Positions 9,840-57,500 are shown, numbered from the stretch's first letter. The stretch is 64,000 bases of DNA from Candidatus Latescibacterota bacterium (GCA_965237675.1 OZ250150.1:1536001-1600000); one strand, 5' to 3'. A program made the numbers and translations. Notes: a model not told the origin generated them from the sequence alone.

Positions 9840-12800
9840 CGAGATCCGCCGCGTAGCGCCGCTGTTGCATTTGTAGGGGCAACCCTTGTGGTTGCCCAGG
9901 TGATGGCGTTGATATCGCCCATTGATATAGCCAGGCCATATCGCTAACCGGCTTTAGCTGACCGCTGCAGGCTGATCGCTGACATCAGAGCTAAGGTGAA
10001 TTATTCGCAAAAAAGGTAGATTCGTTACTCCAAGTCATTGTATTATGGTTACGCAAATAACCTTATAGCAATGAATTTGGAAGAAACTACCGTGGGGGCT
10101 CAAGATAGTCATCACAGGATCCTTTTCTCAAGTCTATTCGGTGAAAAGTGAAGGGATTGATCATCATGGAGGACCTCTCCCCCCGGCCCCCTCTCCTGCA
10201 AGGAAAGGGGGAGTTGAACCAGGCGTTGTGCCAACACGGTTTTATATGAGCTCTGATTGAGCGGACCAACCACAATATTTCGCCGGGATTTTTTCAACAA
10301 TGGAAACGTCTTCAGCCAATCCAACGGTTCATTAACCGATCACGGTTCCCCCTTCCTCTCAGGAAGGGGGTTAGGGGGTAGGTCTCGCAGGTCTCGCCAG
10401 AGCTGTCGTTCTTCTTCTAACATGTCAGCCCGCAAACCTCACGCCGACTTCACTTTCTCGATTCACTCGGAAGCTGTTTCTGCTTCCTGAAACTGCAATC
10501 CGTGACAATTCATGAATTAATCAGATCTAAATTATTATTTTTCACGCCCTTTTTCTTGTACGCCCAAGAAAAAGGACCAAAAAGAACGGCGCCGTTCGGC
10601 ACGGGGCCGGTTTTTCCGCGAAACGTTTCAGGGGTAATAAAGGGAATTGGCTGCCCTGAGAGCCACTCAGGTGTACCAGTGCGATGGTGCTGGACGGATT
10701 AGCGCGGAAAAGCCCCGTCACCACCGCTGTTGCATTTTGCGACACCTGGAAGCGGGGGCGTAGCGCCGTCGTTTTATTTGTAGGGGCAACCCTTGTGGTT
10801 GCCCAGGTGATGGCGTTGATATCGCCCATTGATATAGCTAGGCCATATCGCTAACCGGCTTTAGCTGACCGCTGCAGGCTGATCGCTGACATCAGAGCTA
10901 AGGTGAATTATTCGCAAGAAAGGCAGTTTCGTTACTCCAAGTCATTGTATTATGGTTACGCAAATAACCTTATAGCAATGAATTTGGAAGAAACTACCGT
11001 GGGGGCTCAAGATAGTCATCACAGGATCCTTTTCTCAAGTCTTTAGCGAGGACCTCTCCCCCCGGCCCCCTCTCCTGCGAGGAGAGGGGGAGTTAAACCA
11101 GGCGTTGTGCCAACACGGTTTTATATGAGCTCTGATTGAGCGGACCAACCACAATATTTCGCCGGGATTTTTTCAACAATGGAAACGTCTTCAGCCAATC
11201 CAACGGTTCATTAACCGATCACGGTTCCCCCTTCCTCTCAGGAAGGGGGTTAGGGGGTAGGTCTCGCAGGTCTCGCCAGAGCTGTCGTTCTTCTTGTAAC
11301 ATGTCAGCCCGCAAACCTCACGCCGACTTCACTTTCTCGATTCACTCGGAAGCTGTTTCTGCTTCCTGATACCGCTATCCGTGACAATTCATGAATGAAT
11401 CAGATCTAAATTCTTGATTCTTATTTTTCCTCGCCCTTTTTCTTGTACGCCCAAGAAAAAGGGCCAAAAAGAACGGCGCCGCTCAAACGCCGCGGGGCTG
11501 CTTTTCCGCGAAACCCCTCAGTGGCGCAGACCAGCTTCGATGCCCTACGAGCGTTTGCGGAGTTCCCAGGCGACAGGCGTTGGACGGAATAGCGCGGAAA
11601 AACCCCCCACGCCACCGTTGTTGCATTTTGCGACACCTGGAAGCGCGGGTTCCCGCGCCGCCGTTGCAGTTTGTAGGGGCAACCCTTGTGGTTGCCCAGG
11701 TGATGGCGTTGATATCGCCCATTGATATCGCTAGGCCATATCGCTAACCGGCTTTAGCTGACCGCTGCAGGCGGATCGCTGACATCAGAGCTAAGCCTCT
11801 TTAATTCACACAAAAGGAAGTCTCCTTGCTCAAGTCATTGTATTCTGGCTTACTTAATTAACCTTATAACAATGAACCTGGAGCAACCTGGCGTGGAGGC
11901 TCAAGATAATCATCACAGAATCCTTTTCGCGAGTCTTTAGTGAGGACCTCTCCCCCCGGCCCCCTCTCCTGCGAGGAGAGGGGGAGTTGAACCAGGCGTT
12001 GTGCCAACACGGTTTTATATGAGCTCTGATTGAGCGGACCAACCACAATATTTCGCCTGGATTTTTTCAACAATGGAAACGTCTTCAGCCAATCCAACGG
12101 TTCATTAACCGATCGCAGTTCCCCCTTCCTCTCAGGAAGGGGGTTAGGGGGTAGGTCTCGCAGGTCTCGCCAGAGCTGTCGTTCTTCTTCTAACATGTCA
12201 GCCCGCAAACCTCACGCCGACTTCACTTTCTCGATTCACCCGGAAGCTGTTTCTGCTTCCTGAAACTGCAATCCGTGACAATTCATGAATTAATCAGATT
12301 TAAATGCTTGATTTTTCTTCGCCCTTTTTCTTGTACGCCCAAGAAAAAGGGCCAAAAAGAACGGCGCCGCTCAAACGCCGCGGGGCTGCTTTTCCGCGAA
12401 ACCCCTCAGTGGCGCAGACCAGCTTCGATGCCCTACGAGACCTTGCGGAATTTCCAGGCAATAGTGCTGGACGGAATAGCGCGGAAAAGCCCCGTCACCA
12501 CCACCGGGCGGGTTAGAGAGAAACGCGAGGGACCGGAAAAAAGAACGCCTCCCTCGCGTTCGGAAAGCAAAACGGGACTGGAACGCAAAGCCCGTCCGGA
12601 GGGCAACCAGAGCAGAGCGCGCTATTCCGTCCATCTCGGAGATCGGGTACCCGCCCTCGCTGGCAGGGCAACGGGTCGTGTGCATCCTGTGAGGAAATTC
12701 GCGCTGTGTATAAGTACGGCCCCGCGCCCAGCGGCGACTTTTAAAAGCGGTAAGAAGCAAGAGGCAAGAAGGTAGAAGGGTTAATAACTTTGTCATATGA

Positions 12801-13030
12801 AACCCTCTGAACCGGAGTCTCGCTAACTGGAAAATAGAAGTGGATCGCGAAAGAGGGCGCGTAACCGGTGGGTGGCGGCGTGGCCTTCTCACCTCTACCG
12901 TCTTACGTCTCACGGTTTCAAGGAACCCTCCGAAGGCAGGGAATTTGGGGAGATGTAGAATTGGATTCTGGTTTTCGCTCTTTGCTACAAGGTGTCTGCT
13001 GACCGCTAATAGCTGTTTTTTCTGATCGCT
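9840..13030. repeat. Large intergenic repeat mosaic (three ~900-bp tandem units plus a composite element)
   Basis: GTAGGGGCAACCCTTGTGGTTGCCC at 9873, 10780 and 11673 (periods 907 and 893); each unit has a DUF559 relic and a variable-loop core. Confidence 0.9.
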
Positions 13031-13054
13031 ATTTGTTGCTTTGGGGTTTCTCCA

Positions 13055-13924
13055 ATGGATCGCGTGGTTGAAAACGCCCCGGCCAAGCTCAACCTGGGTC
13101 TGAAAATCCTGGGCCGCCGGGCGGATGGGTATCACGATATCGTTTCCGTGCTTCAGACGGTGGATCTGTGCGACCGGCTGGTGTTCACGCCCGCGGCGCC
13201 CGGGGAAACCCTGATTGTCTGCGACCATCCGGACGTTCCCGAGGGGCCGGAAAACCTCGTCCATCGGGCCGTGGAGATTCTGCGCCGCGCAACGGGGGCC
13301 GACCACGGGGTGCGCGTGGATCTGAACAAACGGATACCGACGGGTGCGGGCCTGGGCGGCGGAAGTTCCGACGCGGCCACGTCCCTGCGGGCGCTGGACC
13401 GGCTCTGGGGACTGCATTTGCATCCGGAAAAATTGGCCGCGCTCGCGGCGGAACTCGGGTCCGACGTCCCGTTCTTTCTCACCGGAGGCACGGCCGTCGT
13501 GACGGGGCGCGGGGAGCGGATCCGGCCCGTCGATTGGGGGGGCGAATTCTGGTACGTGCTGGTGTATCCCGGGTTCCCCGTGTCCACCGCCTGGGCCTAT
13601 CGAAACGTGAGAATTGGCTTGACAGAAACCCGGGCGTATGGTAGATTTCTGGACTTTACGATAAAATCCGGCCGGATCTGCGCTGGCCGATTGTTCGCGT
13701 GCCTGGAAAACGACTTTCTGCCGCTCGTGGAAGCCGCAAGCACCGACGTCGCGCGGATCCTTACGGCGCTGGTCGGCGAGGGGGCGGTCGCATGCTCCCT
13801 TTCGGGCAGCGGATCCACGCTCTTCGGCGTTTTTCGCGAGGCCCGGCAGGCGTCGGCCGCGGTTGCGCTTGTACAGGGCCGCGGGCGTCGGGTCTATCTG
13901 TGTCGTAACCGGCCCCGGGCGTGA
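13055..13924 (+). CDS. ispE: 4-diphosphocytidyl-2-C-methyl-D-erythritol kinase
   Basis: APAKLNLGL..RADGYH, IPTGAGLGGGSSDAA, LGSDVPFF, SGSGST. Confidence 0.95.
   Translation: MDRVVENAPAKLNLGLKILGRRADGYHDIVSVLQTVDLCDRLVFTPAAPGETLIVCDHPDVPEGPENLVHRAVEILRRATGADHGVRVDLNKRIPTGAGLGGGSSDAATSLRALDRLWGLHLHPEKLAALAAELGSDVPFFLTGGTAVVTGRGERIRPVDWGGEFWYVLVYPGFPVSTAWAYRNVRIGLTETRAYGRFLDFTIKSGRICAGRLFACLENDFLPLVEAASTDVARILTALVGEGAVACSLSGSGSTLFGVFREARQASAAVALVQGRGRRVYLCRNRPRA
13619..13647 (+). promoter_or_regulatory. Sigma70-type promoter inside ispE
   Basis: TTGACA-17bp-TAGATT with an extended TG; points toward tRNA-Gln/rplY. Confidence 0.55.
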
Positions 13925-14067
13925 GTTCGGCAGAGCGGCCGGCCTCGTCGGAACCGGATCGGCTGTTGCAACGATATATTATTGTATAGAAAACGACCCC
14001 GGTCGATTGCCGCCTCAATGGAGGTTTGGGGATCGATCGTAGCGCGCACCCGGGTTACCGTATTTGA

Positions 14068-14138
14068 TGCCGGGTCGTCTAAAGGTAAGACAACGGCCTT
14101 TGGAGCCGTCTATCGGGGTTCGAATCCCTGCCCGGCAG
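14068..14138 (+). tRNA. tRNA-Gln(TTG), CCA not encoded
   Basis: Acceptor stem TGCCGGG/CCCGGCA, anticodon arm ACGGC-CTTTGGA-GCCGT, T-loop GTTCGAATC; usual position after ispE. Confidence 0.95.
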
Positions 14139-14172
14139 TTTAAAGTCGCACCGTTCAGTGGAGGATCAGTCA

Positions 14173-14859
14173 ATGGCTGACAATAACGGCGTAAGGCTGC
14201 AGGCCGAAGTACGCACGGGAACCGGAAAGGGCGAGGCCAAGCGCATCCGGCGTACCGGAAGGATACCGGCGGTGGTCTATGGGGACCGGAGCGCGCCCGT
14301 CACCTGTTCGGTCGACGCGAAGGCGTTATCAACGGTCTTGCACGAACACGGGCGGAATACGCTTCTGTCCCTGGTTCTGGGCAACGGCGAGAGCGAATCC
14401 GAAAACACCGCCATTGTCAAAGATCTTCAACACCACCCGATCGGCGACCACGTCCTCCACGTGGATTTTTACCGGATTTCGCTCACCCAGAAAATCGTTG
14501 TGGAAGTGCGCATCGAGCCCGAAGGCATTCCGGCCGGCGTCCGTGCGGAGAGCGGTATTCTGGAGCAGTTGCTGCACCATGTGGAGGTGTCCTGCCTGCC
14601 CGGCGAGATTCCGGAACGCATCGGGTACGAGGTTACGAATCTGAATATCGGAGATTCGGTGCATGTGTCCGATCTGAGCGTGACGGCCAACGTGGAGATC
14701 GTTGCCGAGGGCGACCGGTCCGTGTTCGTGGTGGTTCCGCCAACCGTGGCCCCGGTCGTAGAGGAAGAGGAAGAGGAAGAGGACATGGAGGCCGAGGCCG
14801 AGATGCAGGAACCCGAGGTGATCGAACGCGGCAAACGCGAGGAAGACGAGGACGAATAG
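14173..14859 (+). CDS. rplY: 50S ribosomal protein bL25/Ctc
   Basis: GKGEAKRIRR.GRIPAVVYG, HVDFYRI, acidic tail; GGAGG SD upstream of the ATG. Confidence 0.95.
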   Translation: MADNNGVRLQAEVRTGTGKGEAKRIRRTGRIPAVVYGDRSAPVTCSVDAKALSTVLHEHGRNTLLSLVLGNGESESENTAIVKDLQHHPIGDHVLHVDFYRISLTQKIVVEVRIEPEGIPAGVRAESGILEQLLHHVEVSCLPGEIPERIGYEVTNLNIGDSVHVSDLSVTANVEIVAEGDRSVFVVVPPTVAPVVEEEEEEEDMEAEAEMQEPEVIERGKREEDEDE

Positions 14860-14956
14860 CGGTGTGCCGACGTGTCGCAAAATGCGACACCTGGGGCCGC
14901 GGGGAGGTCTTCTTGCGTCTCACGTGTTGCTTCTTGCCGCATGAAGGCGGTGCGGA

Positions 14957-15523
14957 GTGACAGCTAAGGTTGTCGTGGGTCTGGGCAACCCGGGTTCCGA
15001 ATACGCTCATACCCGCCACAACCTGGGCTTTCGGGTGGTCGATCTGCTGGCGGGAAGGTTGAAGGGAACCTGGTCGGAAAGCACCTGGTATTTTTTTTGC
15101 CGGATCGCGACGGGTTCCGAGACGCTGGTGCTCGTGAAACCGACCACTTTCATGAATCGAAGCGGCGTTGCGGTTACAGACGTTCTGGATCGATTCGAAG
15201 CCGATGTCGAGGACGTTCTGGTGGTGGTGGACGACGTCCACCTCGACCTGGGCCGGATCCGGTTGCGGCGCGGGGGCAGCGACGGGGGGCACAACGGGCT
15301 GCGGTCGATTATCGATTGCGTCGGGTCCGCCGCGTTTCCCAGGCTGCGACTGGGTATCGGCGCACCGCCGGAGGGTACGGACCGGATCGGGCACGTTCTG
15401 AGCGCGTTAGAAGCCGGAGAATACGACACGGTCGAGGCGGCGATTCGCGAAGCGGCCAGCGGTGTGAGATGCTGGATGGAATCCGGAATAGACGTGGCGA
15501 TGAATCGGTATAATTCACTGTAG
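14957..15523 (+). CDS. pth: Peptidyl-tRNA hydrolase
   Basis: VVGLGNPG..Y..TRHNLGF, KPTTFMN.SG, GGHNGLRSI. Confidence 0.96.
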   Translation: MTAKVVVGLGNPGSEYAHTRHNLGFRVVDLLAGRLKGTWSESTWYFFCRIATGSETLVLVKPTTFMNRSGVAVTDVLDRFEADVEDVLVVVDDVHLDLGRIRLRRGGSDGGHNGLRSIIDCVGSAAFPRLRLGIGAPPEGTDRIGHVLSALEAGEYDTVEAAIREAASGVRCWMESGIDVAMNRYNSL

Positions 15524-16930
15524 GAGCAACCCTCACGGCCGCTCCCCGGGAGCGCGGGCGTCTCGCCCGCATGGCGCCGACGTCGCATTTGTAGGGGCAA
15601 CCCTTGTGGTTGCCCGCATCACGACGCTGACATCCGTGATAATGATATCGCCAGGCCATATTGAAAGCCGGTTTTAGCTCACTGCTGATGGCTGACATCA
15701 GAGCCAAATTCTTAAATATTATTTTTCCTCGCCCTTTTTCTTGTACGCCCAAGAATCGGCTGGAAGCAAGAGGGAAGACGTGGGAAGGGTTGGTAACATT
15801 GTCGGATGACACCCCCGCACAATGGCTTGTCGAGCCGTTGAGGAAGCGTGTGTGAAGGTGGGGCAGACATTCCTGTCTGCCCATCTCGTGTTTACGCAAC
15901 ACTTCGTTCGACTCCCCCTCTCCTCGCAGGAGAGGGGGCCGGGGGGAGAGGTCCTTCTGCCGGAATGCAGACAGAAGAAAGGGTTGCGCCGACGTCAGCA
16001 TTTGTAGGGGCAACCCTTGTGGTTACCCGCGTCAGGGCGATGTTATCGGTAATGGTCTTCGCCAGGCCATATTGCAACGGACTCTCGCCGAGTTGAAGTT
16101 GACCGCTCATCTTCCGAAAGCCAGTCAGTTCTCGATCGCGAGCCCTGTCCGGAGGACCACCAGAGCAGAGCGCGCGGTTCCGTCCATCTCGGAGATCGGG
16201 TACCCGCCCTCGCAGGTAGGGCAACGGGTCGTGTGCATCCTGTGAGGGTGTTCGCGCTGTGTATATGGCAGGCTCCGCCTGCCTGTGCGTTGCCGCACGC
16301 AGACAGGCGCCTGGCGGCGACTTTTAAAAGCGGTAAGAAGCAAGAAGGTAGAAGGGTTAATAACTTTGTCATATGAAACCCTCTGAACCGGAGTCTCGCT
16401 AACTGGAAAATAGAAGTGGATCGCGAAAGAGGGCGCGTAACCGGTGGGTGGCGGCGTGGCCTTCTCACCTCTCCCGTCTTTCGTCTCACGGTTTCAAGGA
16501 ACCCTCCGGAGGCAGGGAATTTGAGGAGAGGTTGTGATTTTGGAGTAAAATTCTTATTTATTATTTTCTTCGCCCTTTTTCTTGTACGCCCAAGAAAAAG
16601 GGCCAAAAAGAACGGCGCCGCTCAAACGCCGCGGGGCTGCTTTTCCGCAAATCGCCTCAACAGTGTCGACAGGCTTTGGTGCCCTTTGTCCCTTCCATCC
16701 GTTCCTGAACCATGGTGGTGGACGGATTAGCGCGGAAAAGCCCCGTCACCACCACCGGGCGGGCGTGAGGCAGATCGGGAAGGACCGCCACGCGGATTGG
16801 CTTCGAACCGCAGGTGTCGCATTTGTAGGGGCAACCCTTGTGGTTACCCGCGTCAGGGCGATGTTATCGGTAATGGTCTTCGCCAGGCCATATTGCAACG
16901 GACTCTCGCCGGGTTTAAGCTGATTCCTGT
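15520..16930. repeat. Intergenic repeat mosaic between pth and hppA
   Basis: REP palindromes, B-type core 16166-16261, A-type core 16641-16739; modules shared with the other mosaics. Confidence 0.88.
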
Positions 16931-17010
16931 TTTTCCCCTTGTGTCTTCGTGTGAGTTGATTGTCGACTTTCCTGCTGTATGCTGACTGCTGCTTTTTCAG
17001 GAGGATTCTT

Positions 17011-19038
17011 ATGGTCTGGACGCCAATAGTCTGGACGCCAATCTTTGGGATTGCCGGGTTGCTGGTCGCCGGGCTGATTTACTTGAGAATTGCCCGTAAA
17101 CCGGCCGGAACGGATCGGATGCGAGAGATTTCGGATGCCATCCACGAAGGCGCCATGGCGTTCTTGAAACGCGAATACGTGGTTCTGGCGGTTTTCATCG
17201 TGGCGGTTTTCATCTTGCTTTCGATCGGGATCAGGCCGTTCAGCACGGCGTTCGCGTTCCTGGCCGGCGCAATCTGTTCCATCGGCGCCGGTTTTTTCGG
17301 TATGAAGGCGGCCACCAAGGCCAACGTGCGCACCGCGTATGCCGCCAACCGCGAGGGCCAGGCAGAGGCCCTGGGCGTGGCTTTCTCCGGCGGAACGGTG
17401 ATGGGCCTCTCGGTGGCCAGCCTCGGGCTGTTGGGCGTGGGCGTGCTGTTCCTCCTGTTCGGTAATGCGGACCAGGCCGTGGTCATCAACGGATTCGCCA
17501 TGGGCGCCAGTTCCATCGCCCTGTTCGCGCGTGTGGGCGGCGGTATCTATACCAAAACGGCCGACGTGGGGGCCGACCTGGTCGGCAAGGTGGAGGCCGG
17601 CATTCCCGAGGACGACCCGCGCAACCCCGCGGCGCTCGCCGATTTCGTGGGCGACAACGTGGGCGACGTGGCCGGGATGGGGGCCGATATCTTCGAGTCC
17701 TACGTGGGATCGATCGTGGCAACCATCGCCATCGCGGCCACGGCCGGGCCGGCCCTGATGGACACGTTGGCCGGCAGTTCCGTGTATGCCGACGCGGCCG
17801 TGAAACTGACGGCTATGCAACTGCCGCTTATCGTGGCCACGATCGGCCTGGTGGCATCGCTGATCGGCATGTTGTCCATGCCGGTCCTGCAGCGTTTCAA
17901 TCCCGCGTCCGCCCTTCGCTACGCTTCGTTCGTGGCCGCCATCGTCATGTTCGCCGGCAGCTATTTCGCGGTGGACGGCTTGGGGCTCTCCGAAGGCGTG
18001 TTCTGGGCGATTCTGCTGGGCGGCCTCACCGGCATTCTGATTGGCCTGCTCACCGAATATTACACCGGCGGCCCACCGGTCAGAAGGGTGGCCGAAGCCT
18101 CTGAAACCGGGCCCGCCACCAATATCATCTCGGGCCTGGCCATCGGCATGCAGAGCACGTTTCTGCCCGTACTGGCCATCTGCGCCGCCATCGGGTTCGC
18201 CCATCATTTCGCCGGGCTTTACGGCATCGGCATCGCGGCCGTGGGGATGCTGGCAACCGTGGGCATCACCATGGCGGTGGACGCGTACGGGCCCATCGCG
18301 GACAACGCGGGCGGCATTTCCGAAATGGCGGAACTCGGACCCGAAACCCGGAAGATCACGGACGGCCTGGACGCGCTGGGCAACACCACGGCGGCCATCG
18401 GCAAGGGCTTCGCCATCGGATCGGCGGCTCTGACGGCCCTGGCCCTCTTCTCGGCCTACGCCTCGACCGTGAAACTGGAGGTGATCAACCTCACCTCGCC
18501 GATGGTGGTGATCGGCCTTTTCATCGGTGGTTCCATCCCGTTCCTCGTCGCCGCCCAGACCATGACCTCGGTGGGGCGGGCGGCCTTCCGGATGGTGGAA
18601 GAGGTCCGGCGGCAGTTCCGGGAGATTCCCGGGTTGATGGAAGGCACCGGCAAACCCGATACCCGGCGCTGCGTGGATATCAGTACGGTCGCGGCGCTGC
18701 GGGAAATGGTGCCGCCCGGGGTCGTTGCCTTGCTCACGCCCGTGCTGGTCGGATTCATCCTCGGCAAGGAAGCGCTCGGCGGCATGCTGGCCGGCGCCCT
18801 GTTGAGCGGCATGCTGATGGCGCTGATGATGGCCAACAGCGGCGGCGTGCTGGATAACGGAAAGAAATACATCGAGGACGGCCACTTCGGCGGCAAGGGG
18901 TCCGAAGCCCACATGGCCTCGGTGGTCGGCGACACCGTGGGGGATCCGCTGAAGGACACCTCCGGCCCCTCGCTCAACATATTGATCAAATTGATGTCCG
19001 TCGTCTCGCTCGTGCTTGCACCGCTATTGATCGACTGA
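17011..19038 (+). CDS. hppA: Membrane pyrophosphatase, K+-dependent, probably Na+-translocating
   Basis: [29 protein letters not shown]-like motif, [16 protein letters not shown]; AGGAGG SD before ATG 17011. Confidence 0.93.
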
Positions 19039-19049
19039 TATAATAACAC

Positions 19050-20200
19050 GGCCGGTTCGCAGGATTCCCTGGCGCCGCGTCGTCGTTGCATTTTGCAGGA
19101 GCAACCCTTGTGGTTGCCCGCATCAAGGCGCTGACATCCGTGATTATGATATCGCCAGACCATATTGCAAGCCGGTTTTAGCTGACCGCTGTCAGCTCGA
19201 CGTTGAAAAGCCAGTCGGTTCTCGATCGCGAGCCCTGTCCGGAGGACCACCAGAGCAGAGCGCGCGGTTCCGTCCAGGGCCGAGTACCGATGTTCTTCCG
19301 TGGTTGGCAGGGCAGAGGATCATGTGCATCTCGTGAGGGGATTCGCGCTGTGCATAAGTACGGCCCCGCGCCCAGCGGCGACTTTTGGTTCCTTTTGGTC
19401 GGTTCAAAAGGAACTCGCCGAAGGCAGGTAATTTGGGGAGAGGTTGTGATTTTGGAGTAAAATTCTTATTTATTATTTTTTACGCCCTTTTTCTTTCTCG
19501 CCCAAGAAAAAGGGCCAAAAAGAACGGCGCTGCTCAGACGCCGCAGGGCTGGTTTTTCCGCGAAACGCCTCAGTGGAGAAATCGTGAGACATTGCCCTGA
19601 GACCGCCTGAGCATACACGGGACAATAGTGTTGGACGGAATAGCGCGGAAAAACCCCCCACGCCACCACCGGGCGGGTTAGTGAAACGCGAAGGACCGGA
19701 AAAAAGAACATCTCCCTCGCGTTCCGAAAGCAAAATGGGACTGGACGGCAAAGCCCGTCTGGAGGATAACCAAAGCAGAGCGCGCGGTTCCGTCTCGCAC
19801 GGAGTACCCAATTTCTTCCGTGTTTGGCAGGGCACCGGCTTTGTTGCGTCCGCCGTCGAGATTCGCGCTGTGTATAAGTACGGCCCCGCGCCCAGCGGCG
19901 ACTTTTAAAAGCGGTAAGAAGCAAGAGGCAAGAAGGTAGAAGGGTTAATAACTTTGTCATATGAAACCCTCTGAACCGGAGTCTCGCTAACTGGAAAATA
20001 GAAGTGGATCGCGAAAGAGGGCGCGTAACCGGTGGGTGGCGGCGTGGCCTTCTCACCTCTCCCGTCTTTCGTCTCACGGTTTTAAGGAACCCTCCGGAGG
20101 CAGGGAATTTGGGGAGAGGTTGTGGTTTTGAATTTGTCTTTTGCTTATAGCTGACCGCTGTACACTGACTGCTGACCGCTGAAAGCTGTTTCCCATTCAC
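19050..20200. repeat. Intergenic repeat mosaic between hppA and rpsF
   Basis: B cores at 19256-19352 and 19776-19872, A core at 19554-19652; same layout as 12320-12950. Confidence 0.88.
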
Positions 20201-20258
20201 CCCGCTCGAGGCCGCCCGGTCGGGCCGCCTTCGGGCCACACGTCCAAGGGGAGGTTCC

Positions 20259-20621
20259 ATGGCAAAACGTTACGAACTCACGATCATCGTCAATACCCAG
20301 GCGCCGGAAGGCGGTGTGGACCGCATCGTCGCGGGTTTCGAACGCCTGCTTTCGGAGAACGGCGGCAGCACGGTCAACGTCAACCGTCTGGGCACGCGCA
20401 AGCTGGCGTACGAAATCGGCAAACAGCAGCGCGGCGACTACACGTTCATCCGCTTCGAGACCTCGCCGGACGTCCTTCCCGAGGTGGACAGGATGTTCAA
20501 ACTGGACGAATCCGTGCTGCGGCACATGGTCGTCCTGGACGAGACCCCCGTGGAGGAAGAACCGGAAGCGGCCGAAGAAGACGAAAACACGGATTCAGAC
20601 GCGAAAAAGGAGGGCGCATGA
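20259..20621 (+). CDS. rpsF: 30S ribosomal protein bS6
   Basis: YELTII, LG.RKLAYEI, SVLRHM. Confidence 0.95.
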
Positions 20622-20706
20622 ACCGGTCCAAACAACGCGAAAAAGGAGGGCGCACGAACGGGCCCAATATACGCGAAAAAGGTGGGCGCATGAACCGGCC
20701 CAGTAT
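20599..20706 (+). repeat. 3 x 36-bp tandem repeat spanning the rpsF stop and the rpsR SD/start
   Basis: ACGCGAAAAAGG(A/T)GGGCGCA(T/C)GAAC... at 20599, 20635 and 20671. Confidence 0.9.
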
Positions 20707-20914
20707 AAAGGTTTGCAGATTTTGTGAAGACAAGGCGTTGACGATCGATTACAAGGACGTGCGGATGCTCCAGCGGTTCGTGACGGAACGGGGAAAGATT
20801 ATCCCCCGGCGCGTGTCGGGTACCTGCGCCAGGCACCAGCGCATCCTCACCCGGAATCTCAAGCGCGCCCGCCAGATCGCGCTGTTGCCCTTTACAACAG
20901 ACAACATGAATTAG
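20618..20914 (+). CDS. rpsR: 30S ribosomal protein bS18 (Zn-binding type); alternative start at 20690
   Basis: [41 protein letters not shown]. Confidence 0.95.
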
Positions 20915-21820
20915 AGTGGAAAGAGGTAAGAAGTAAGAGGCAAGAGGTGTTGGTAACTTTGTCACATGAGACGTCCGCAACCGGACTCTCGCAATATTCA
21001 AAAAGAAGCGGATTACGAAAGGGGGCGCGAGACTGGTGGGTTGGGGTGTGGTCCTCTCACTTCTCTCGTCTTTCCTCTTACGGCTTTTTTTGGAACTGCG
21101 TTTCGGGCAGACACTGGCATTTCTACTCTCTTCATCCTTTTTTCTTTTTCCTCGCCCTTTTTCTTGTACGCCCAAGAAAAAGGGCCAAAAAGAACGGCGC
21201 CGCTCAAACGCCGCGGGGCTGCTTTTCCGCGAAACGCGTCGGTGGCGGTGAACGGAGGAGGTGGCCTAAGAGCCTCTAAAGAGTTCCTGTACGCAGGCGT
21301 GGGACGGATTGGCGCGGAAAAGCCCCATCTCCGCCACCGTGCGCGCGAGACGTTGACCGGTAAGGCCCTCCGAGCGGGTTTGCGATTGTACCGCTTTTCG
21401 CTGTCTGCAGCTTGCGGTTTTTTCCTTTGTGTTTTTGTGTGAGGCGGTGTTTTCGTGGGTACAGGCGGGCGACCGGCCGGTCGCCCCTACCAAAACCAGG
21501 TATCCGCGAATTGACATCGCCGGTCCGTATCGCTAACCCTCCCCCTCTCCCCGTGGGAGAGGGGGCCGGGGGGTGAGGGACTTGGGGCCGATGTGGATTG
21601 GCATCGCCAGGCCGTATGGCAATCTGCCTTTTGCTTTTCGTTCTTAGCTGACCGCTGATAGCTTTCTGCTGCTTTCGTCGATGCTGCTGCCCGCTACAAA
21701 TATATCGGGGTTAACTCCCCCTTTCCTTTAGGAGAGGGGGCCGGGGGGAGAGGTCCCGCTTTTTTTTGCCTTTTGTTGTAAGCTGACTGCTGACCGCTGA
21801 TAGCTGTTCGCTATATAATT
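20915..21820. repeat. Repeat mosaic between rpsR and rplI
   Basis: A core at 21223-21321; 21302-21590 is identical to 22668-22956. Confidence 0.88.
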
Positions 21821-21867
21821 AATGTAAAACGCCAGATGGCCATCGCGCCGAACGAAAGGGAACCACC

Positions 21868-22311
21868 ATGAAGGTTATATTGACGGAAGAACTGAACAAC
21901 CTTGGCCGGGCCGGATCCGTTGTGGTCGTCAAGGACGGCTACGCCCGGAACTACCTCATCCCCCGGAAACTTGCCCTGGCGGCCAGCAAGGGAAACATGA
22001 ATGTCTACGAGGAACTCAAGCGCCAGAAAGAGGCCGGCAACACCCGCGCCCAGCGCGAGGCCGCGGCCCTCTCGAGGAAACTCGAAAAGGCATCCTGCAC
22101 CATTCCCGTGGCCGTGGGCAAGGAAGACCAGATCTTCGGCTCCGTGACGGCGCAGCACATTTCCGATCAACTCGTGGAGCAGGGCTTCGAGATCGACAGG
22201 CGGTGGATCGAACTCGAGGAACCCATCCGAGCGCTCGGGGTCTACGACGTGTCCGTCCGGCTCCATGCCGAAGTACGCGCAACCGTGAAGGTGTGGGTGG
22301 TGAAGGAATAA
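21868..22311 (+). CDS. rplI: 50S ribosomal protein bL9
   Basis: MKVIL..LG..G.VV.VKDGYARNYLIP, FGSVT. Confidence 0.97.
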   Translation: MKVILTEELNNLGRAGSVVVVKDGYARNYLIPRKLALAASKGNMNVYEELKRQKEAGNTRAQREAAALSRKLEKASCTIPVAVGKEDQIFGSVTAQHISDQLVEQGFEIDRRWIELEEPIRALGVYDVSVRLHAEVRATVKVWVVKE

Positions 22312-22319
22312 CCCGGCTT

Positions 22320-23150
22320 TTGACGTCTCAGGTTTGGTTTTCGCTTCTCGCTGTATGGTTTTCGATTTTTGCTTCAAGCTGACTGCTGACCGCTGATAGC
22401 TGTTTCCAGGGAATAGCACGTCATCGGCATACAAAAGCAGTGGGGAAAGACGGATGGTGGGTCTTGTTCAAGGCCCATGAGACGTTTTTCCTCCTTTCTT
22501 TTTGTTTTTTATTCATTTACGCCCTTTTTCTTTCTCGCCAAAGAAAAAGGGCCAAAAAGAACGGCGCCGCTCAGACGCCGCGGGGCTGCTTTTCCGCGAA
22601 CCACCTCGGTGTCGGAACAGGCGTCTGTGCCCTACGTACCCATATGACCACACAGCGCTCCGGTGCTGGACGGATTGGCGCGGAAAAGCCCCATCTCCGC
22701 CACCGTGCGCGCGAGACGTTGACCGGTAAGGCCCTCCGAGCGGGTTTGCGATTGTACCGCTTTTCGCTGTCTGCAGCTTGCGGTTTTTTCCTTTGTGTTT
22801 TTGTGTGAGGCGGTGTTTTCGTGGGTACAGGCGGGCGACCGGCCGGTCGCCCCTACCAAAACCAGGTATCCGCGAATTGACATCGCCGGTCCGTATCGCT
22901 AACCCTCCCCCTCTCCCCGTGGGAGAGGGGGCCGGGGGGTGAGGGACTTGGGGCCGGGGGGAGAGGTCCCGCGCGGTCGTTGCATTTGTAGGGGCGACCG
23001 CTGGGTCGCCCGGTTCGTGGCGCGCATATCGCTGATTGACATCGCCATGCCATATCGCTAACCCTCCCCCTTTCCTTTAGGAGAGGGGGCCGGGGGGAGA
23101 GGTCGTGAATTTGGTTTTCGCTTTTGCTTCAAGCTGATTGCTGATTTCTT
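22320..23150. repeat. Repeat mosaic downstream of rplI
   Basis: A core at 22590-22687, REP palindromes, heptamers. Confidence 0.85.
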
Positions 23151-23174
23151 TCACATATGTGAAAGAAAATTTCG

Positions 23175-23812
23175 ATCGTTCCGAGTCATTCACCGCCCGA
23201 TGCCTCACGCCTTGAGTCTCTTTATAGGCTGAGGCATTATCTGTATATGCTGTAACGTTTTTGTCCGTATGTCGCGCCACAAAGCCCCGCCAATAGCTTC
23301 TGCAACCTCAGCGTCAACCCTATTGGTCTGCCCCGTCCCACCCTCCCACAACTAGGGTGAATTATTCGCAAAGAGTTGTGGTGTTCTTGAATAAGAGGTT
23401 GTTTTTCAATAAATTAAGAGTAGGGAATCACGACAACTCTTGAAGTTGTGGGATCGGGTTGGCAAAAGTGATGTCGTACAGTCGTATGATGGACGGATTC
23501 ATCGCTATAACCCGGAATAGGGAGCATGCTTCCTGCTTTTCGTTTTTATCCCTTCCATCCTGTCCATCCATGTAAATTCCGGTTTCTGAATTTTTAAGGC
23601 TGGGGTCTTGCCTGCAGTGCCGCGTCCAGCGTTCGGCTTCTTGCTGGCATGTTTTTTGCGTTCCTTGCCGCCAATGGTGGTTTCCTCTACCGGACCCTCA
23701 AAGAGCCCGTTGGTTGCTGAGCCTGTCGAAGCATCGGCGCATGCCTCGCGGATGCGGAGCGCCATGTGCCACTCGGTCTTCTGAGTTACGCCAATGTCCC
23801 GGTGCAATTTCA
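23175..23812 (-). pseudogene. Degenerate IS1595-family transposase fragments
   Basis: KLHRDIGVTQKTEWHM..RIREA, LFEGPVE.T.IGGKERKKH, then TNRVDAEV and YTDNASAY fragments; frameshifted and interrupted by repeat DNA at ~23345-23595. Confidence 0.8.
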
Positions 23813-23876
23813 GAGGTGTTTTACGGCGCAGCAAGGCAGTTTTATCGGAGCGTGCTGATTCACAGGGAGGTTGGTG

Positions 23877-24177
23877 ATGCAGGTTCGAACGTTTTTAAGT
23901 CCGGGTTTGGCGTTTTTGCTGTCAGTTGGCGTTGTTGGCGTCGCGTCCGCACAGGAAGTCGCCCGCACGCGGGGTATTATGATTCGCGTCGACAAACCGG
24001 CTGCCAACGCGTGGGTGAAAATCGACGACAAGATCGAGATTCGCATCCTGGCTTTCGACGGTCTCCTCAATGGCGGTTTCCGGGTGTCGGTTGTCGATTC
24101 AAAGCTCGCTGACGACGATGTCGGTACCACTGCCGGCGGGTCGGCCGCCGCCGATGGATTCGTTTACTATAATATAA
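23877..24177 (+). pseudogene. 5' part (signal peptide) of large surface protein paralog 1, cut by IS1595
   Basis: Homologous to the N-terminus of 36463-41394; GGAGG SD; fuses in frame with 27341-31734 once the IS and one TSD are removed. Confidence 0.9.
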
Positions 24178-24329
24178 GGCACCTATATACTTAACTACCC
24201 GTCCATAACCCTTTAATTTATAACGGTTTAATAATTATTATAAGATGAATATTGTCTTTACTTAAAATAATTGTTATAATTGTTGTAAATTAAAGGGTTA
24301 TGGGGGTACCCTAGACTATAAATAAGTGA

Positions 24330-24359
24330 AAACCCTCGATCGGTCAGGATCGAGGGCTC
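24330..24359 (-). terminator. Terminator after the DUF2188 gene
   Basis: CCCTCGATC-6nt-GATCGAGGG hairpin followed by TTTT on the minus strand. Confidence 0.65.
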
Positions 24360-24383
24360 AGACAGGTCATCGTTGGTTGGGGT

Positions 24384-24605
24384 TTAACCACGGGGTGGAA
24401 ACGGGTCTTTCCCGTAGCTGTTTTTGGTTCCGAATTGCCCATTCTTCTTATGGATGATCAATTCGCTTTCAGAAACCTTAGCTATCATTCTGCCTATGCG
24501 AGCGGCTTCAGCCTGTGTTGTGGCATTGGAAATTGGTTCCGGTCGGCCAGCCTGCTTTACGGCCCAATCTCCATCATCGGGTACAACATGGATTGAATTT
24601 GCCAT
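24384..24605 (-). CDS. DUF2188 family protein (IS passenger)
   Basis: HVVP..GDWAVK..G...TQAEA...A....SEL.IH..NG....SYG.DPFPP.G. Confidence 0.85.
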   Translation of the reverse strand: MANSIHVVPDDGDWAVKQAGRPEPISNATTQAEAARIGRMIAKVSESELIIHKKNGQFGTKNSYGKDPFPPRG

Positions 24606-43530: not shown

Positions 43531-44029
43531 ACCGGTTCCTCGCGGCCACCTGTCGACCGCCCGGTTGTGGAGTAGGGGGTGTCTATCGCCCTCTAACGTG
43601 TTTAACCGTACCTGCGCCCGGTGGCGAAGTTTGGGGGTTTGCGGCCCCACCGGTTCTCCCGTCGACCGCCCGGTTGTGGAGTGGGGGGTTTTTCCGTGCT
43701 GATCCGTCCAGCAGTGTCGTCTGGTTGATACTCGGGGGGTCTCAGGGCAATGTCTCACGATTTCTCTACGAAGGAGATTCGCGGAAAAACCGGCCCCGTG
43801 CCGAACGGCGCCGTTCTTTTTGGTCCTTTTTCTTGGGCGTACAAGAAAAAGGACGGAGAGAGGAAAAAAGCACGAAGTATAAGGAAGCGTGTGTGAAGGT
43901 GGGGCAGACATTCCTGTCTGCCCATCTCGTGTTTACGCAACACTTCGTTCGACTCCCCCTCTCCTCGCAGGAGAGGGGGCCGGGGGGAGCGGTCCTTCTG
44001 CCGGAATGCAGACAGAAGAAAGGCTTGCG

Positions 44030-44250: not shown

Positions 44251-45328
44251 CGGTTCCTCGCGGCCACCTGTCGACCGCCCGGTAGGGGAGTAGGGGGTGT
44301 CTATCGCCATCTAACGTGTTTAACCGTACCTGCGCCCGGTGGCGAAGTTTGGGGGTTTGCGGCGTCACCGGTTCTCCCGTCGACCGCCCGGTTGTGGAGT
44401 AGGGGGTTTTTCCGTGCTGATCCGTCCAGCAGTGTCGTCTGGTTGATACTCGGGGGGTCTCAGGGCAATGTCTCACGATTTCTCTGCTGAGGAGATTCGC
44501 GGAAAAACCGGCCCCGTTCCGAACGGCGCCGTTCTTTTTGGTCCTTTTTCTTGGGCGTACAAGAAAAAGGACGGAGAGAAAAGGGACGTCCGGGGGTAGG
44601 GAAGATTCCACCACCCGCAAATTCCGTTCCGGTGGCGGCGTGGGGGTTTCTATCGCCCTCTAACGGGTTTAACCGTACCGGCGCCCGGTGGCGAAGTTTG
44701 GGGGTTTGCGGCTTCACCGGTTCTCCCGTCGACCGCCCGGTTGTGGAGCGGTGGGTTTTTCCGTGCTGATCCGTCCAGCAGTGTCGTCTGGTTGATACTC
44801 GGGGGGTCTCAGGGCAATGTCTCACGATTTCTCTACTAATGAGATTCGCGGAAAAACCGGCTCCGCGCCGAGCGGCGCCGTTCTTTTTGGTCCTTTTTCT
44901 TGGGCGTACAAGAAAAAGGACGGAGAGAGGAAAAAAGCACGACGTGTGTAGAAATACCAGTGCCTGCCCGGAACGCAGTTCCAGCAACGGTAGTCCGGCA
45001 ATACAGGACGTAACAAGTTGCATTCCGTAAAACTCAAAAAGGACCACGCAACGCGGACTCTCGCATGGATGCGCGTTTCCGCTCCCACGCGTGCCGAACG
45101 GCGCCGTTCTTTTTGGTCCTTTTTCTTGGGCGTACAAGAAAAAGGACGGAGAGAAAAGGGAAGTCCGGGGGTAGGGAAGATTCCACCAACCCCAAATTCT
45201 GTATCCAACCGACCGGAAAAATCACTTCCCCTACGGAACGGAACCCCATCCGATTCGTTAAAAGATTAATCGGCCACGGTTCCGGAATAAGTGGACAGAT
45301 ACGAGACAGGGCAAGGAGGAGACAAGAG

Positions 45329-53428: not shown

Positions 53429-53481
53429 TATGTGACGTATCGACTCTGGTTGATAAATTCTCTTGATTGGAGTGCTTCATA

Positions 53482-53518: not shown

Positions 53519-53538
53519 GATAACATCACACCCTAGCA

Positions 53539-54887: not shown

Positions 54888-56615
54888 ATGGAGGTGGGCG
54901 CCATTAACCAACCGAACGACGCAAATCGCCAGCGAAAGTCGCCGGATGACTTTCTGCAGGACTACGTGGATATGCAGCACACGTTCCGGTCGCTGTCCAT
55001 TATCGATCAGATATTGATGTCCATGGACGAAAAGGACAAACGCCGGCCCCAGCTCTACGACCTCCGTCGACAGCTTCAGGAGGACGAGATTACGTTCGAA
55101 GAGGCGCGGCGGACCATCGTGGAGATGGAGGCCGCGCTCGAGAAGGTGACGGCGCCGGCCAACCGGGTGGGCACGCTCCTGGAGCCGCCCCGCGACGGGG
55201 TGGCGTATATCAGCGTGGGCGGGTCGGAATATTTCGCCAATGTCGATTCCAGGCTGGACCGGCAGACGTTGAAGGTGGGCACGCGGGTGCTGGTAAACGA
55301 CGCGTTCGCTATCGTGGGCGAACTGGGATATACGTTGTCCGGCCAGGTGGCGAAGATTTCAGACGTGCTCGAAGACAGCCGGTTGCGGGTCGGCCAGGAA
55401 CCTGGCGGGCAGGTCACGGTGCTCTCCCGGTCGAGCGACCTCATCGAGGCGTCGCTGAAGGCGGGCGACGAGGTTCGCGTGGATCCGAATTTCCGCGTGG
55501 CGCTGGAACGGATGCCCAAAAAAGACGCGAAAGACTATTACCTGGAAGAGATTCCACATCTGCCGTGGGAGAAAATCGGCGGCCAGGACGAGGCCATCCA
55601 GGCCATAAAAGATACGATCGAGATGCCGGCGTTGCACCCGGTCCTGTTTTCCAGGTTCCAGTACAGCGTTCCCAAGGGGTTCCTGTTGTACGGGCCGCCG
55701 GGCTGCGGCAAGACGCTGATCGGCAAGGCAACCGCTTACAACCTCGTCAAGCAGGCCCGCCAGGAGGCCGGACTTAAGTTGAAAGAATGTTTCATGAATA
55801 TTAAAGGTCCGGAAATCCTGAATATGTGGCTGGGCGAGTCCGAACGCCAGGTTCGAGAGATTTTTTCCCGGGCGCGGGAGAAGCGGAAAGAGGGCTGTCT
55901 GCCGGTGGTATTCATCGACGAGGCGGAGTCGGTTCTCGGCACGCGCCGGGCGATGCGATCGCACAGCATTTCAAATACCGTTGTGCCGATGTTCTGCTCG
56001 GAGATGGACGGCATCGAGTCGCTGCAGGACGTGGTGATCATACTGGCGTCCAACCGGCCCGACCTGATCGACCCCGCCATTTTGAGGCCGGGAAGAATCG
56101 ACCGGAAAATAAAGGTGAAACGTCCCGACAGGGAGGGCGCGCACGAGATCCTCAAGATCTATCTGACACCCGATCTTCCAATTAACCGGAAAGCGTTGGA
56201 AGAGCACGGGGGTGACGCGTCGGAGGCCGTGGAGGCGTTCGTCGCGCGCACGGTGGAAGAGATTTTCTCTCGCAAGGACCATACGCGGTTTCTCGAAGTG
56301 ACCCTGCGAAGCGGCCGGAAGGATATTCTCCGCCGGGGGGATCTGGCCAGCGGGGCAATCATGGAATCCATTGTGCGGCGGGCAAAGGAAATGGCCATCC
56401 GGCGCTCGATCGCGTCTGGAGAGGAAGAGGGCATTTCCCAGGACGATCTGCTTCAGGCCGTCGAGGCCGAGTATACGGAGAATGAGATTTTCCCGTCGAC
56501 GGATCACACGGAAGACTGGCTGAAGTTGCTGGACTACGATCCCGAAAACGTCGTGCGGGCGTCGCCGATTCGCCCCGGGCGGGAGACGAACCGGCGCGTG
56601 AATCGGAGCGTGTAG
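54888..56615 (+). CDS. arc: Proteasome-associated AAA+ ATPase
   Basis: Coiled coil, two OB domains, GPPGCGKT, NIKGPEILN, FIDEAES, SNRPDLIDPAILRPGRID; upstream of the proteasome genes. Confidence 0.92.
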   Translation: MEVGAINQPNDANRQRKSPDDFLQDYVDMQHTFRSLSIIDQILMSMDEKDKRRPQLYDLRRQLQEDEITFEEARRTIVEMEAALEKVTAPANRVGTLLEPPRDGVAYISVGGSEYFANVDSRLDRQTLKVGTRVLVNDAFAIVGELGYTLSGQVAKISDVLEDSRLRVGQEPGGQVTVLSRSSDLIEASLKAGDEVRVDPNFRVALERMPKKDAKDYYLEEIPHLPWEKIGGQDEAIQAIKDTIEMPALHPVLFSRFQYSVPKGFLLYGPPGCGKTLIGKATAYNLVKQARQEAGLKLKECFMNIKGPEILNMWLGESERQVREIFSRAREKRKEGCLPVVFIDEAESVLGTRRAMRSHSISNTVVPMFCSEMDGIESLQDVVIILASNRPDLIDPAILRPGRIDRKIKVKRPDREGAHEILKIYLTPDLPINRKALEEHGGDASEAVEAFVARTVEEIFSRKDHTRFLEVTLRSGRKDILRRGDLASGAIMESIVRRAKEMAIRRSIASGEEEGISQDDLLQAVEAEYTENEIFPSTDHTEDWLKLLDYDPENVVRASPIRPGRETNRRVNRSV

Positions 56616-56619
56616 TGTT

Positions 56620-57500
56620 CCGGAGTCAGCGGTCAGCTAAGAGCCGGGCTTCTCCCCCCGGCCCCAAGTCCCTCACCCCCCAACCCCCTCTCCCACAGGG
56701 AGAGGGGGAGCAGAACCAGGGGTTGACCTATCACGTTATCTCGTCCAGGTTTTTTCATCAATCGAACTGTCTTCAACCGAAGACAGTTCCCCCTTCCTCT
56801 CAGGAAGGGGGTTAGGGGGTAGGTCTCGTCCTCACGCCCGCCTGGAGGTGGTGATGGGGGTTGTTCGCGGCAAGAATCGCGCCGCTCACCATCAACCTCG
56901 AACGCCAGAACCAGGCGTCCCCTGTTGTTCCGAAAAATCGCCGGAACAACAGTTCACGCGCTGCGCGGGTGGAGGTTGGTTTTCCACGCTTAAACGTCCA
57001 GCATCATTACTATACGTTACCACGTATAGATTTGATTTTGACTGGCGGCAAGACCGCAAACACGTTCAAAACTCCTTCGCGGTATACCTCATGGCCGTCC
57101 GGTGGCGGAGTGGGGGCTTTTCCGCGTTATTCCATCCACCACCTGTGCTTGGTGGTCGCAATGAAGCCCGCAGGGCACAGCCTCCGGTTTCGGCCTCCGA
57201 GGGAGTTCGCGGAAAAGCAGCCCCGCGGCGTCTGAGCGGCGCCCTTCTTTCAAAGGCGGTGAGACGGGAGACGGGTAGAAGGGAGAGGACCACACCGCAC
57301 ACCGCCGGGCTCGCGCTCCACTAAGCAATTCTCTTCTATTTGAATATTGCGAGAATCCGATTGCGGACGTCTCACCTGTCAAAGTTATCACCACCTCTTC
57401 CGTCTTCCCTCTACCCTCTCACGGCTTTTTGGCGATGCAAGAAAAAGGGCAAGGGAATAGGGGACGTTTGGGGGTGAGGGAGATTCCATCTCACGGGTGC
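56620..57500. repeat. Repeat mosaic between arc and dop
   Basis: DUF559-type palindromes, inverted A core at 57118-57216, heptamer-flanked module. Confidence 0.85.

Follow-up and report, generated by a model that had tools for sequence, protein, structure and literature searches.

BOX elements of Streptococcus pneumoniae are intergenic repeats built from boxA, boxB and boxC modules, which occur in various combinations and in about 100 or more copies and are predicted to adopt stable structures when transcribed. To our knowledge, no dedicated transposase is known for them. Known repeat families are, for the most part, long palindromes. The bacterial interspersed mosaic elements (BIME) and repetitive extragenic palindromes (REP) of enterobacteria and pseudomonads, together with their RAYT transposases, are among the subjects of a published review (PMC3184786). 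The window analyzed here, a stretch of 64,000 nucleotides from a Candidatus Latescibacterota bacterium (GCA_965237675.1 OZ250150.1:1536001-1600000), contains 14 dispersed copies of a cassette of about 99 bases, in which a short closing stem encloses two inner segments on either side of a central motif (TGCCCT). A first-pass annotation, made from the sequence of the window, had described these cassettes and had read them mainly as a programmable two-segment guide RNA or single-stranded DNA (ssDNA). The analysis presented here points to a different reading, to which we assign roughly even chances: that the cassette forms the core of a larger mosaic repeat, undescribed to date, interspersed in the genome, specific to its lineage and acting as RNA. 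Taken on its own, action of the repeat as a structured nucleic acid is the most likely interpretation, and that nucleic acid is probably RNA. Such a repeat would be comparable in kind to the BOX, BIME/REP, ERIC and Correia elements; the function proposed for it below is a putative one.

The genome carrying the window spans 5.6 Mb, with a G+C content of 58%. The cassette pattern of the first-pass annotation matched exactly at 12 positions in the window, versus none in 100 dinucleotide shuffles, and the two remaining cassettes (starting at 21223 and 57118) are single-base variants recovered when one mismatch was allowed. Pattern search with at most one mismatch hence returned all 14 cassettes in the positions and orientations originally reported, each of them 98-100 nt long. 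Using a profile built from these copies and a limiting E-value of 1e-9, 73 full-length cassettes were identified genome-wide, besides weaker relatives. Cassette length was tallied on 72 copies picked genome-wide with a regular expression for the motifs, and was exactly 99 nt in 50 of them and 98-101 nt in 69, so that the fixed length noted in the window, for which a genome-wide check had been proposed, holds across the genome and lengths do not vary freely. As an observation, the 99-base cassettes are confirmed.

The frame of the cassette is highly conserved: mean pairwise identity reaches 0.92 in the 5' arm, 0.95 in the central motif and 0.84 over the 3' motif and arm. The corresponding values for segments 1 and 2 are 0.58 and 0.57, versus 0.51 and 0.52 after shuffling, and the inner segments are near-random between copies. 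Clustering at approximately 65% identity resolves segment 1 into 16 classes and segment 2 into 21, where at least seven classes had been claimed. The linkage between segment-1 and segment-2 classes is partial (adjusted Rand index 0.55), and a single segment-1 class is found combined with 7 different segment-2 classes. The identities, length counts and class linkage together bear out the description of a constant scaffold (closing stem, central motif, 3' motif and set spacing) around two reassorting segments of fixed length. Both of the examples of reassortment put forward earlier also stand: cassettes 11502 and 12390 have a common segment 1, and cassette 19554 combines most of the segment 1 of cassette 43690 with the tail of cassette 12390. 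Segment 1, which had been called hypervariable, is instead partly conserved.

The closing stem comprises 10 bp and is 98.4% paired over 50 copies, with 4 of the 10 pairs changing on both sides. These both-side changes amount to 31 cells, as compared to 9.6±5.6 in shuffles (none of 500 shuffles reached 31), and pairing drops to 51-63% if the 3' partner is slid by 1-3 columns. The mismatches in the stem, read on the strand of the first-pass annotation, include 28 C·A or A·C versus 6 G·T or T·G. Since the C·A and A·C mismatches become G·U wobbles on the other strand, the strand that folds is probably complementary to the one originally written, an assignment that can be made with moderate confidence. 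A first RNAalifold run on the strand as originally written yielded almost no structure. On the opposite strand, the stem can be extended by four G-C pairs and closes a loop of about 81 nt, and RNAalifold predicts the closing stem followed, 4-5 nt further on, by a GC hairpin in which two pairs covary, C-G changing to U-A in 4 sequences at one pair and in 7 at the other. A T-rich tract comes directly after this hairpin, both being flagged on that strand by a simple terminator scan; the U tract is present in 64 of the 73 copies and is usually followed by a 12-bp A/U-rich hairpin. The GC hairpin and U tract resemble an intrinsic terminator. The four C that extend the closing stem double as the 5' arm of the GC hairpin, and the two pairings hence compete.

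The loop itself appears to be devoid of structure. No conserved helix was detected inside the 81 nt, the best in-register cis-minus-trans score being 0.74 of 8, and on neither strand does the loop fold more stably than shuffled sequences (folding-energy z of -0.06 and -0.24). Mutual information is dominated by the subfamily signal.

The 99-bp cassette described in the first-pass annotation is real but is not the complete unit: conservation extends from about -95 to +25 around the core, and the cassette forms the center of a modular unit of 160-230 nt. Read on the strand of the first-pass annotation, the usual order of modules is H1, an A-rich linker, H2, four G, the cassette, four C and a CCACC-rich tail, where H1 is a 12-bp A/T-rich hairpin and H2 is a GC-rich hairpin region. 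H1 adjoins a cassette in 60 of its approximately 65 occurrences in the genome and shows compensatory pairs of its own (C-G/T-A in 39/20 and G-C/T-A/A-T in 43/13/4). In some copies alternative upstream modules replace the usual one, and alternative downstream modules also occur. A second family, termed type B to distinguish it from the type-A copies considered so far, retains the architecture with a different sequence in the outer closing stem and in the flanking hairpin H1, which amounts to the compensatory exchange of entire helices. The 7 type-B copies listed for the genome all lie 130-604 nt from a type-A copy and in the opposite orientation.

A covariance model of the 160-nt unit, denoted R1, was used for scans of the window and of the phylum. 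In the window, R1 identified 14 full units, 1 core-deleted remnant and 5 type-B cores. These are given below together with an example of H1 and the tandem duplication discussed later; strands are those of the predicted fold.

10567-10723, minus strand: type-A full unit, pattern match (cassette 10612-10711 on the plus strand; GC hairpin and U tract on the minus strand; R1 140.5 bits, E 5.6e-36)
10547-10576, no strand assigned: H1 module, an example identified from its sequence, the 12-bp A/T-rich hairpin beside unit 10567-10723
11454-11613, minus strand: type-A full unit (cassette 11502-11601; R1 160.6 bits)
12342-12500, minus strand: type-A full unit (cassette 12390-12488; R1 163.4 bits)
16593-16751, minus strand: type-A full unit upstream of the H+-pyrophosphatase gene (cassette 16641-16739; R1 155.7 bits)
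19505-19664, minus strand: type-A full unit (cassette 19554-19652; R1 167.4 bits)
21175-21333, minus strand: type-A full unit with a syntenic counterpart in sister genome G008 (cassette 21223-21321; R1 147.2 bits)
22542-22699, minus strand: type-A full unit (cassette 22590-22687, 98 nt; R1 158.2 bits)
32338-32496, minus strand: type-A full unit (cassette 32386-32484; R1 156.1 bits)
32888-33046, minus strand: type-A full unit (cassette 32936-33034; R1 157.8 bits)
33709-33867, minus strand: type-A full unit (cassette 33757-33855; R1 157.9 bits)
43678-43833, plus strand: type-A full unit (cassette 43690-43788, originally placed on the minus strand; R1 148.5 bits)
44396-44551, plus strand: type-A full unit (cassette 44408-44506; R1 142.8 bits)
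44745-44900, plus strand: type-A full unit (cassette 44757-44855; R1 141.7 bits)
57106-57252, plus strand: type-A full unit lacking H1, between the proteasomal-ATPase and Pup-ligase genes and on their strand (cassette 57118-57216; R1 121.9 bits)
45066-45126, plus strand: core-deleted remnant with the flanking modules and no loop (R1 39.5 bits, the whole model matched in 61 nt)
12618-12703, plus strand: type-B core with a different closing stem, head to head with unit 12342-12500 (R1 32.1 bits, model positions 18-106)
16171-16256, plus strand: type-B core (R1 23.7 bits)
19261-19347, plus strand: type-B core (R1 29.5 bits)
19781-19867, plus strand: type-B core, head to head with unit 19505-19664 (R1 24.2 bits)
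33310-33395, plus strand: type-B core (R1 28.4 bits)
10480-12270, no strand assigned: two tandem units of about 890 bp (alignment A1)

Some units, among them units of sister genome G010 (e.g. C1:3305556-3305747 and 3325042-3325241), measure 190-200 nt rather than about 160. An extra GC-rich hairpin was observed in the H2 region of one copy of the genome studied here (C1:1156580) and of a G010 copy in locus L038, which shows that insertions are tolerated in the terminator-like module and not in the loop. Of the 50 matches listed for G008, about 30 fall, by eye, on the window stretch 19210-19445, which holds a type-B core; type B hence seems much more common in G008 than in the genome studied here, where nhmmer lists 7 to 10 copies.

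The history of the repeat can be followed in the tandem region and by comparison with sister genomes. By eye on alignment A1, the two tandem units agree at about 97-99% of positions along most of their extent. They part at a patch of greater divergence (alignment columns ~438-545) and at a ~130-nt tract, running from H2 through the cassette, that belongs to another class. A third copy in this region carries segment 1 as in the second copy and the 3' flank as in the first. The breakpoints coincide with conserved motifs, which is what gene conversion between paralogs would be expected to produce. Flanking genes share 84-91% identity with those of G008, and the repeat-laden spacers of 3.1 kb and 1.4 kb found here correspond to about 360 and 180 nt in that genome. 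Among the seven type-A copies located in 9500-24500, one (cassette 21223) has a syntenic counterpart in G008. A copy upstream of the H+-pyrophosphatase ortholog is present in 3 of 13 genomes, including the one studied here, and the three copies belong to different classes.

The syntenic pair formed by cassette 21223 and its G008 counterpart shows 19 substitutions and no indels in the inner 81 nt (77% identity), as compared to 96-100% identity in the H1-H2 modules, arms and motifs, and 69% in the unconserved downstream 72 nt. Inner segments diverging like their flanks is the behavior that the first-pass annotation had itself named as speaking against guides, and in this one pair it is what was found. 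Segment comparison covers four syntenic pairs; in the fourth, segments 1 and 2 are, by eye, about 80% and 55% identical. Taken together, the segments would behave as weakly constrained sequence of constrained length, with occasional wholesale replacement, and not as rapidly acquired spacers.

The search for targets of the inner segments, which the first-pass annotation had proposed for the host genome, phages and plasmids, turned up no targets in the genome, the rRNA, the flanks or, for three copies, phages, and two short matches in plasmids. In the host genome, 47 off-element matches of at least 16 nt were obtained with 144 queries, the best of them spanning 18/18 nt (E 0.001), which is near chance. 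Against 16S and 23S rRNA, the longest complementary stretches on either strand do not exceed those of shuffled segments (mean 5.9-6.2 versus 6.1-6.4), and there is no excess complementarity within ±1.5 kb of the copies, where the sole matches are neighboring copies. Searched with the three window copies in 10590-12500, phage records returned nothing, and plasmid records returned two short alignments (E 0.01-0.1), to two Pseudanabaena plasmids, whose position relative to the cassettes was not checked; viral contigs contain no exact match to the conserved 3' motif. Whole-genome searches for IS110 (PF01548), TnpB (PF07282) and Nop-domain (PF01798) genes gave 0 matches each, in agreement with the earlier statement that no effector is identifiable. 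The genome encodes 4 reverse transcriptases (RVT_1) and 5 DUF559 genes, none of them linked to copies with the exception of one DUF559 gene, and three weak Y1 transposase genes; Y1 genes are found in 7 of 14 sister genomes, the element in all 14. Of the protein families suggested as possible partners, RAYT (Y1) is thus uncorrelated with the element, DUF559 mostly unlinked, and IS110 and Nop absent. The exceptional DUF559 endonuclease-domain gene (34458-34769) is situated about 600 nt from cassette 33757, in a repeat-dense region.

Loci containing the conserved motif are recorded under Candidatus Latescibacterota metagenome-assembled genomes. Scanning a sample of the phylum with R1 yielded matches in 35 of 151 genomes, distributed as 18 of 18 in family f1, 15 of 30 in family f2, 0 of 64 in family f3 and almost none elsewhere; the f2 matches are strong in two genera only, the element-bearing genera of f2 being g7 and g10, and most of genus g6 is free of the element. 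On this sample, the element appears confined to one order (two families) of the Latescibacterota. Copies are intergenic and, on rough gene calls, their orientation with respect to neighboring genes is unbiased (23/18/17/15 over the four arrangements). Along the chromosome, copies concentrate between 0.8 and 3.2 Mb, where 59 of the 73 are found; their strand shows no clear bias by replichore. The cumulative GC skew of the contig (C1) has its minimum near 0.3 Mb and its maximum near 3.9 Mb, delimiting very unequal replichores of approximately 3.6 and 2.0 Mb, and it is the longer replichore that carries those 59 cassettes.

According to the mosaic-repeat interpretation, the unit would be transcribed on the strand opposite to that of the first-pass annotation, and the transcribed unit could serve as a 3'-end, insulating or stability module, or could itself be a terminated RNA of small size. 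By its fixed length, the loop would keep the conserved motifs at set distances for a protein: the combination of a retained loop length and retained motifs with a drifting sequence points to a protein that measures distance along RNA or DNA. Rather than acquired spacers or guides, the segment classes would be old subfamilies that gene conversion at the conserved motifs has reshuffled. In view of the lack of a transposase linked to the element, its copies are proposed to have spread through duplication and through recombination or gene conversion.

Several observations weigh against this interpretation. The strand assignment is based on wobbles in related, non-independent copies, and counted by column the ratio falls to 9 versus 6. 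A short U run is also present behind the hairpin on the strand of the first-pass annotation, which makes a bidirectional role possible. An unstructured loop of 81 nt and fixed length is unusual among known repeat families, and upstream of the unit, on the proposed sense strand, no promoter motif proved to be conserved at a set distance. Two further syntenic pairs retain their segments at 100%/94% and 93%/91% identity, with flanking genes at 80-93%; these well-kept pairs hint at copy-specific constraint, which a pure spacer model would not predict. Neither a target-site duplication nor a clean empty site could be defined, the intergenic DNA of sister species being too rearranged, and mobility is hence suggested by presence and absence of copies only. 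Lastly, two metatranscriptome runs, which contained 5-6% of the sampled words, provided only contigs from a relative at about 93% identity, and since these contigs show no starts, ends, strand or level, nothing can be said from them on transcription of the units.

The same observations are open to other explanations. The copies could be a family of paralogous trans-acting small RNAs (sRNAs), each unit being a gene of its own in which the open loop exposes copy-specific seeds for short mRNA targets and the terminator-like hairpin ends the transcript. We consider this unlikely, though plausible enough to be kept in view: the layout of stem, open loop and terminator-like hairpin is what such genes would show, their placement is independent of the orientation of neighboring genes, two syntenic pairs keep their segments at 93-100% and 91-94%, and at a third locus the element has, by eye, 0 differences in about 220 nt versus 13 in the other ~420 nt. 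Other syntenic copies, however, differ by 23-27% in their segments or belong to different classes, copies are gained and lost between sister species, three of them sit in a young tandem array, and no common promoter motif is found at a fixed distance. Genome complementarity of at least 16 nt does not exceed chance either, although seeds of 7-12 nt lie outside the reach of that method. A bolder version of this idea, with about 75 paralogous terminated small RNAs per genome, each bearing two copy-specific segments of ~30 nt in a protein-binding scaffold and forming with some effector an RNA-guided or matchmaking system in one Latescibacterota order, its specificity cassettes exchanged by gene conversion, has in our estimation a slim chance of being correct. 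The programmable two-segment guide RNA or ssDNA, for some nuclease or recombinase, that had been the main proposal of the first-pass annotation appears the least probable of all. The constant scaffold with two reassorting variable segments of fixed length, and a single-stranded loop free for pairing, are compatible with it, but the search found no targets in the genome, rRNA or flanks and, for three copies, no phage match and two short plasmid matches; IS110, TnpB and Nop genes are missing, and RVT_1 and DUF559 genes are unlinked save for the one DUF559 gene. Moreover, the segments diverge about as fast as the unconstrained flank in one syntenic pair, and copies sit in young tandem duplications.

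Two explanations at the level of DNA were also evaluated. A non-autonomous transposon of the miniature inverted-repeat type (MITE), with the stem arms as terminal inverted repeats for a transposase encoded elsewhere, would account for short inverted ends in a small, intergenic, multicopy element that is present or absent depending on the species. We regard it as improbable, given that conservation continues past the arms into the flanking modules, that the tract swapped between the tandem units does not end at the arms, and that no target-site duplication was found. The compensatory changes within one genome point to pairing and not to protein recognition of a fixed sequence, and among candidate transposases the IS1595 gene of the window is unrelated, IS110 and TnpB genes are missing and the Y1 transposase is uncorrelated. 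Fixed spacing with free sequence between motifs, and the 9-bp inverted repeats that flank 81 bp, would likewise be in keeping with a double-stranded DNA site, either phased protein-binding motifs or an invertible switch. The length is clearly constrained and the sequence is not, which keeps alive the ruler or phased-site option that the first-pass annotation had offered, but as a whole this explanation seems quite improbable: no flipped interior occurs among the 73 copies, no inversion joint is seen among the 15 joints listed, out of 154, in four runs (weak evidence, as contigs only were available), and both-arm changes within single copies together with the one-strand wobble excess fit pairing better than recognition of a duplex. 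A protein-coding mini-gene was considered separately and rejected. No frame is open in all copies, and the best one is so in 48 of 73; between close copies, codon positions 1, 2 and 3 account for 253, 195 and 165 differences; and the frame is shifted by the length variants seen in the cassette and in H2.

The repeat constitutes an undescribed, abundant structured element in an uncultured phylum, with 73 full copies in 5.6 Mb, two families and a range of one order. Its unusual trait is a long unpaired loop of fixed length and drifting sequence, with three short motifs retained, placed directly before a terminator-like hairpin, and it offers a clean natural case for the study of length selection and of gene conversion among repeats. 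In practical terms, the R1 model serves as a marker of the clade, and the element explains breaks in short-read assemblies of these genomes, where DNA contigs end at the repeats. These intergenic regions should not be read as regulatory DNA until the element has been masked. The element also carries a warning, in that a scaffold and variable inserts do not by themselves make a guide RNA.

The genes neighboring the cassettes in the window include a GHMP-family kinase (ispE-like by inspection), tRNA-Gln, ribosomal protein L25, peptidyl-tRNA hydrolase, the H+-pyrophosphatase and cohesin-domain proteins, one of them with a secretion-sorting tail. The stretch 54888-59069 harbors Pup-proteasome genes, namely a proteasomal-type AAA ATPase (54888-56615) and a Pup-ligase family gene (57549-59069), and the interval between the two holds, in their orientation, the cassette unit with its terminator-like hairpin. 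Between cassettes of the tandem region, the stretch 11794-11975 (tandem twin ~10905-11085) is covered by contigs of both RNA libraries at word depths of 130 and 47, the contig depth on the neighboring pyrophosphatase gene being 13-52. A G/C-rich hairpin marks the end of this stretch, which may represent an expressed small RNA, something that contigs cannot prove.

Other repeats are interspersed with the element. REP-like hairpins starting with GTAG (GTAGGGGC...GCCCC) are located at 10783-10810 and 16826-16850 of the window; their pattern has 51 matches in the genome, 25 of them with one exact sequence. Of the three weak Y1-transposase (RAYT-like) genes, one lies about 2.9 kb before the start of the window, and none has a GTAG hairpin within 1.5 kb. 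A family of heptamer repeats (GAGACGG/TAGACGG and their complements) is found at 16446-16510 and in intergenic loci of other genomes (L074 in G002 and L076 in G014). In sister genomes these repeats form the inverted ends of an element of about 130 nt, and in some copies of the cassette family the heptamer-repeat module stands in place of the H1 hairpin. Runs of CAGCNNN heptads (e.g. ...CAGCTAT CAGCTGT CAGCCGT...) occur at 10860-10905 of the window and at about 985-1015 of locus L049, immediately behind stop codons and bordering repeat blocks, in both the genome studied here and sister genomes. An AT-rich island at 24700-26200, which looks foreign to a genome of 58% G+C, contains an IS1595-family transposase gene (25132-26049) with a 22-nt inverted repeat just upstream of its start. 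As the only transposase of the window, IS1595 was examined as a possible mobilizer of the element and discarded, its ends being unrelated and its AT-rich surroundings unlike the element.

Comparison with known systems places the element outside the classes of guide and regulatory RNAs that were tested. Only tRNA-Gln reaches the Rfam gathering score across the whole window, and no CRISPR family does; a permissive Rfam scan of one unit on both strands gave chance-level matches (E 0.3 or higher). Full-text literature searches returned no paper on such an element in Latescibacter*, and a broader search none on the phylum among the top 10 results, supplementary files being outside their scope. Unlike CRISPR arrays, the copies are dispersed on both strands, 350-900 bp or more apart and with other repeats between them. 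Matches to foreign DNA of the kind CRISPR spacers show were not found for the three copies in 10590-12500 among phage and plasmid records, beyond the short plasmid matches above, or for the motif among viral contigs. A constant scaffold with variable segments is shared with the bridge RNAs of IS110, the omega RNAs of TnpB/IscB and the TIGR-Tas system, but the genome has no PF01548, PF07282 or PF01798 gene, respectively, and the copies are not in tandem arrays as in TIGR-Tas; in contrast to these guide systems, they are dispersed and not arrayed beside an effector gene. The element also differs from C/D-box guide sRNAs, its complementarity to rRNA being no better than that of shuffled sequences and the genome having no Nop gene. 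A riboswitch or leader does not agree with the absence of orientation bias, the near-random interior and the lack of an Rfam match, and an invertible promoter is at odds with the finding that all 73 copies have the same interior orientation with respect to their flanks.

Integron attC sites resemble the element in their imperfect inverted ends, variable center, similar length range, strand-specific folding and, for some copies, array-like clustering; yet here the interior has no self-pairing, other repeats and no open reading frames lie between clustered copies, and the ends are by inspection unlike the attC core sites, no search for the attC consensus having been run. With regard to MITEs, inverted arms exist here, conservation runs past them, and no duplication or clean empty site could be defined. 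The co-occurrence with a RAYT that characterizes REP/REPIN systems is not seen, the element being present in 14 of 14 sister genomes and Y1_Tnp in 7 of 14. BIME and REP elements are nonetheless alike in being mosaics of short structured intergenic repeats, and this genome has GTAG hairpins and three weak Y1 genes of its own; the cassette differs in not being a simple GC-rich palindrome and in lacking the GTAG head. With BOX elements the repeat shares its intergenic location, many copies, modularity and structure, no sequence similarity being expected, and it departs from them in its host, a candidate phylum, and in its central module, where a stem closes an unstructured loop, long and constant in length, ahead of a terminator-like hairpin. 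It is in the loose class of BOX/BIME/ERIC-like mosaic repeats that the element finds its place, with 73 copies, alternative modules, covarying stems and turnover between species.

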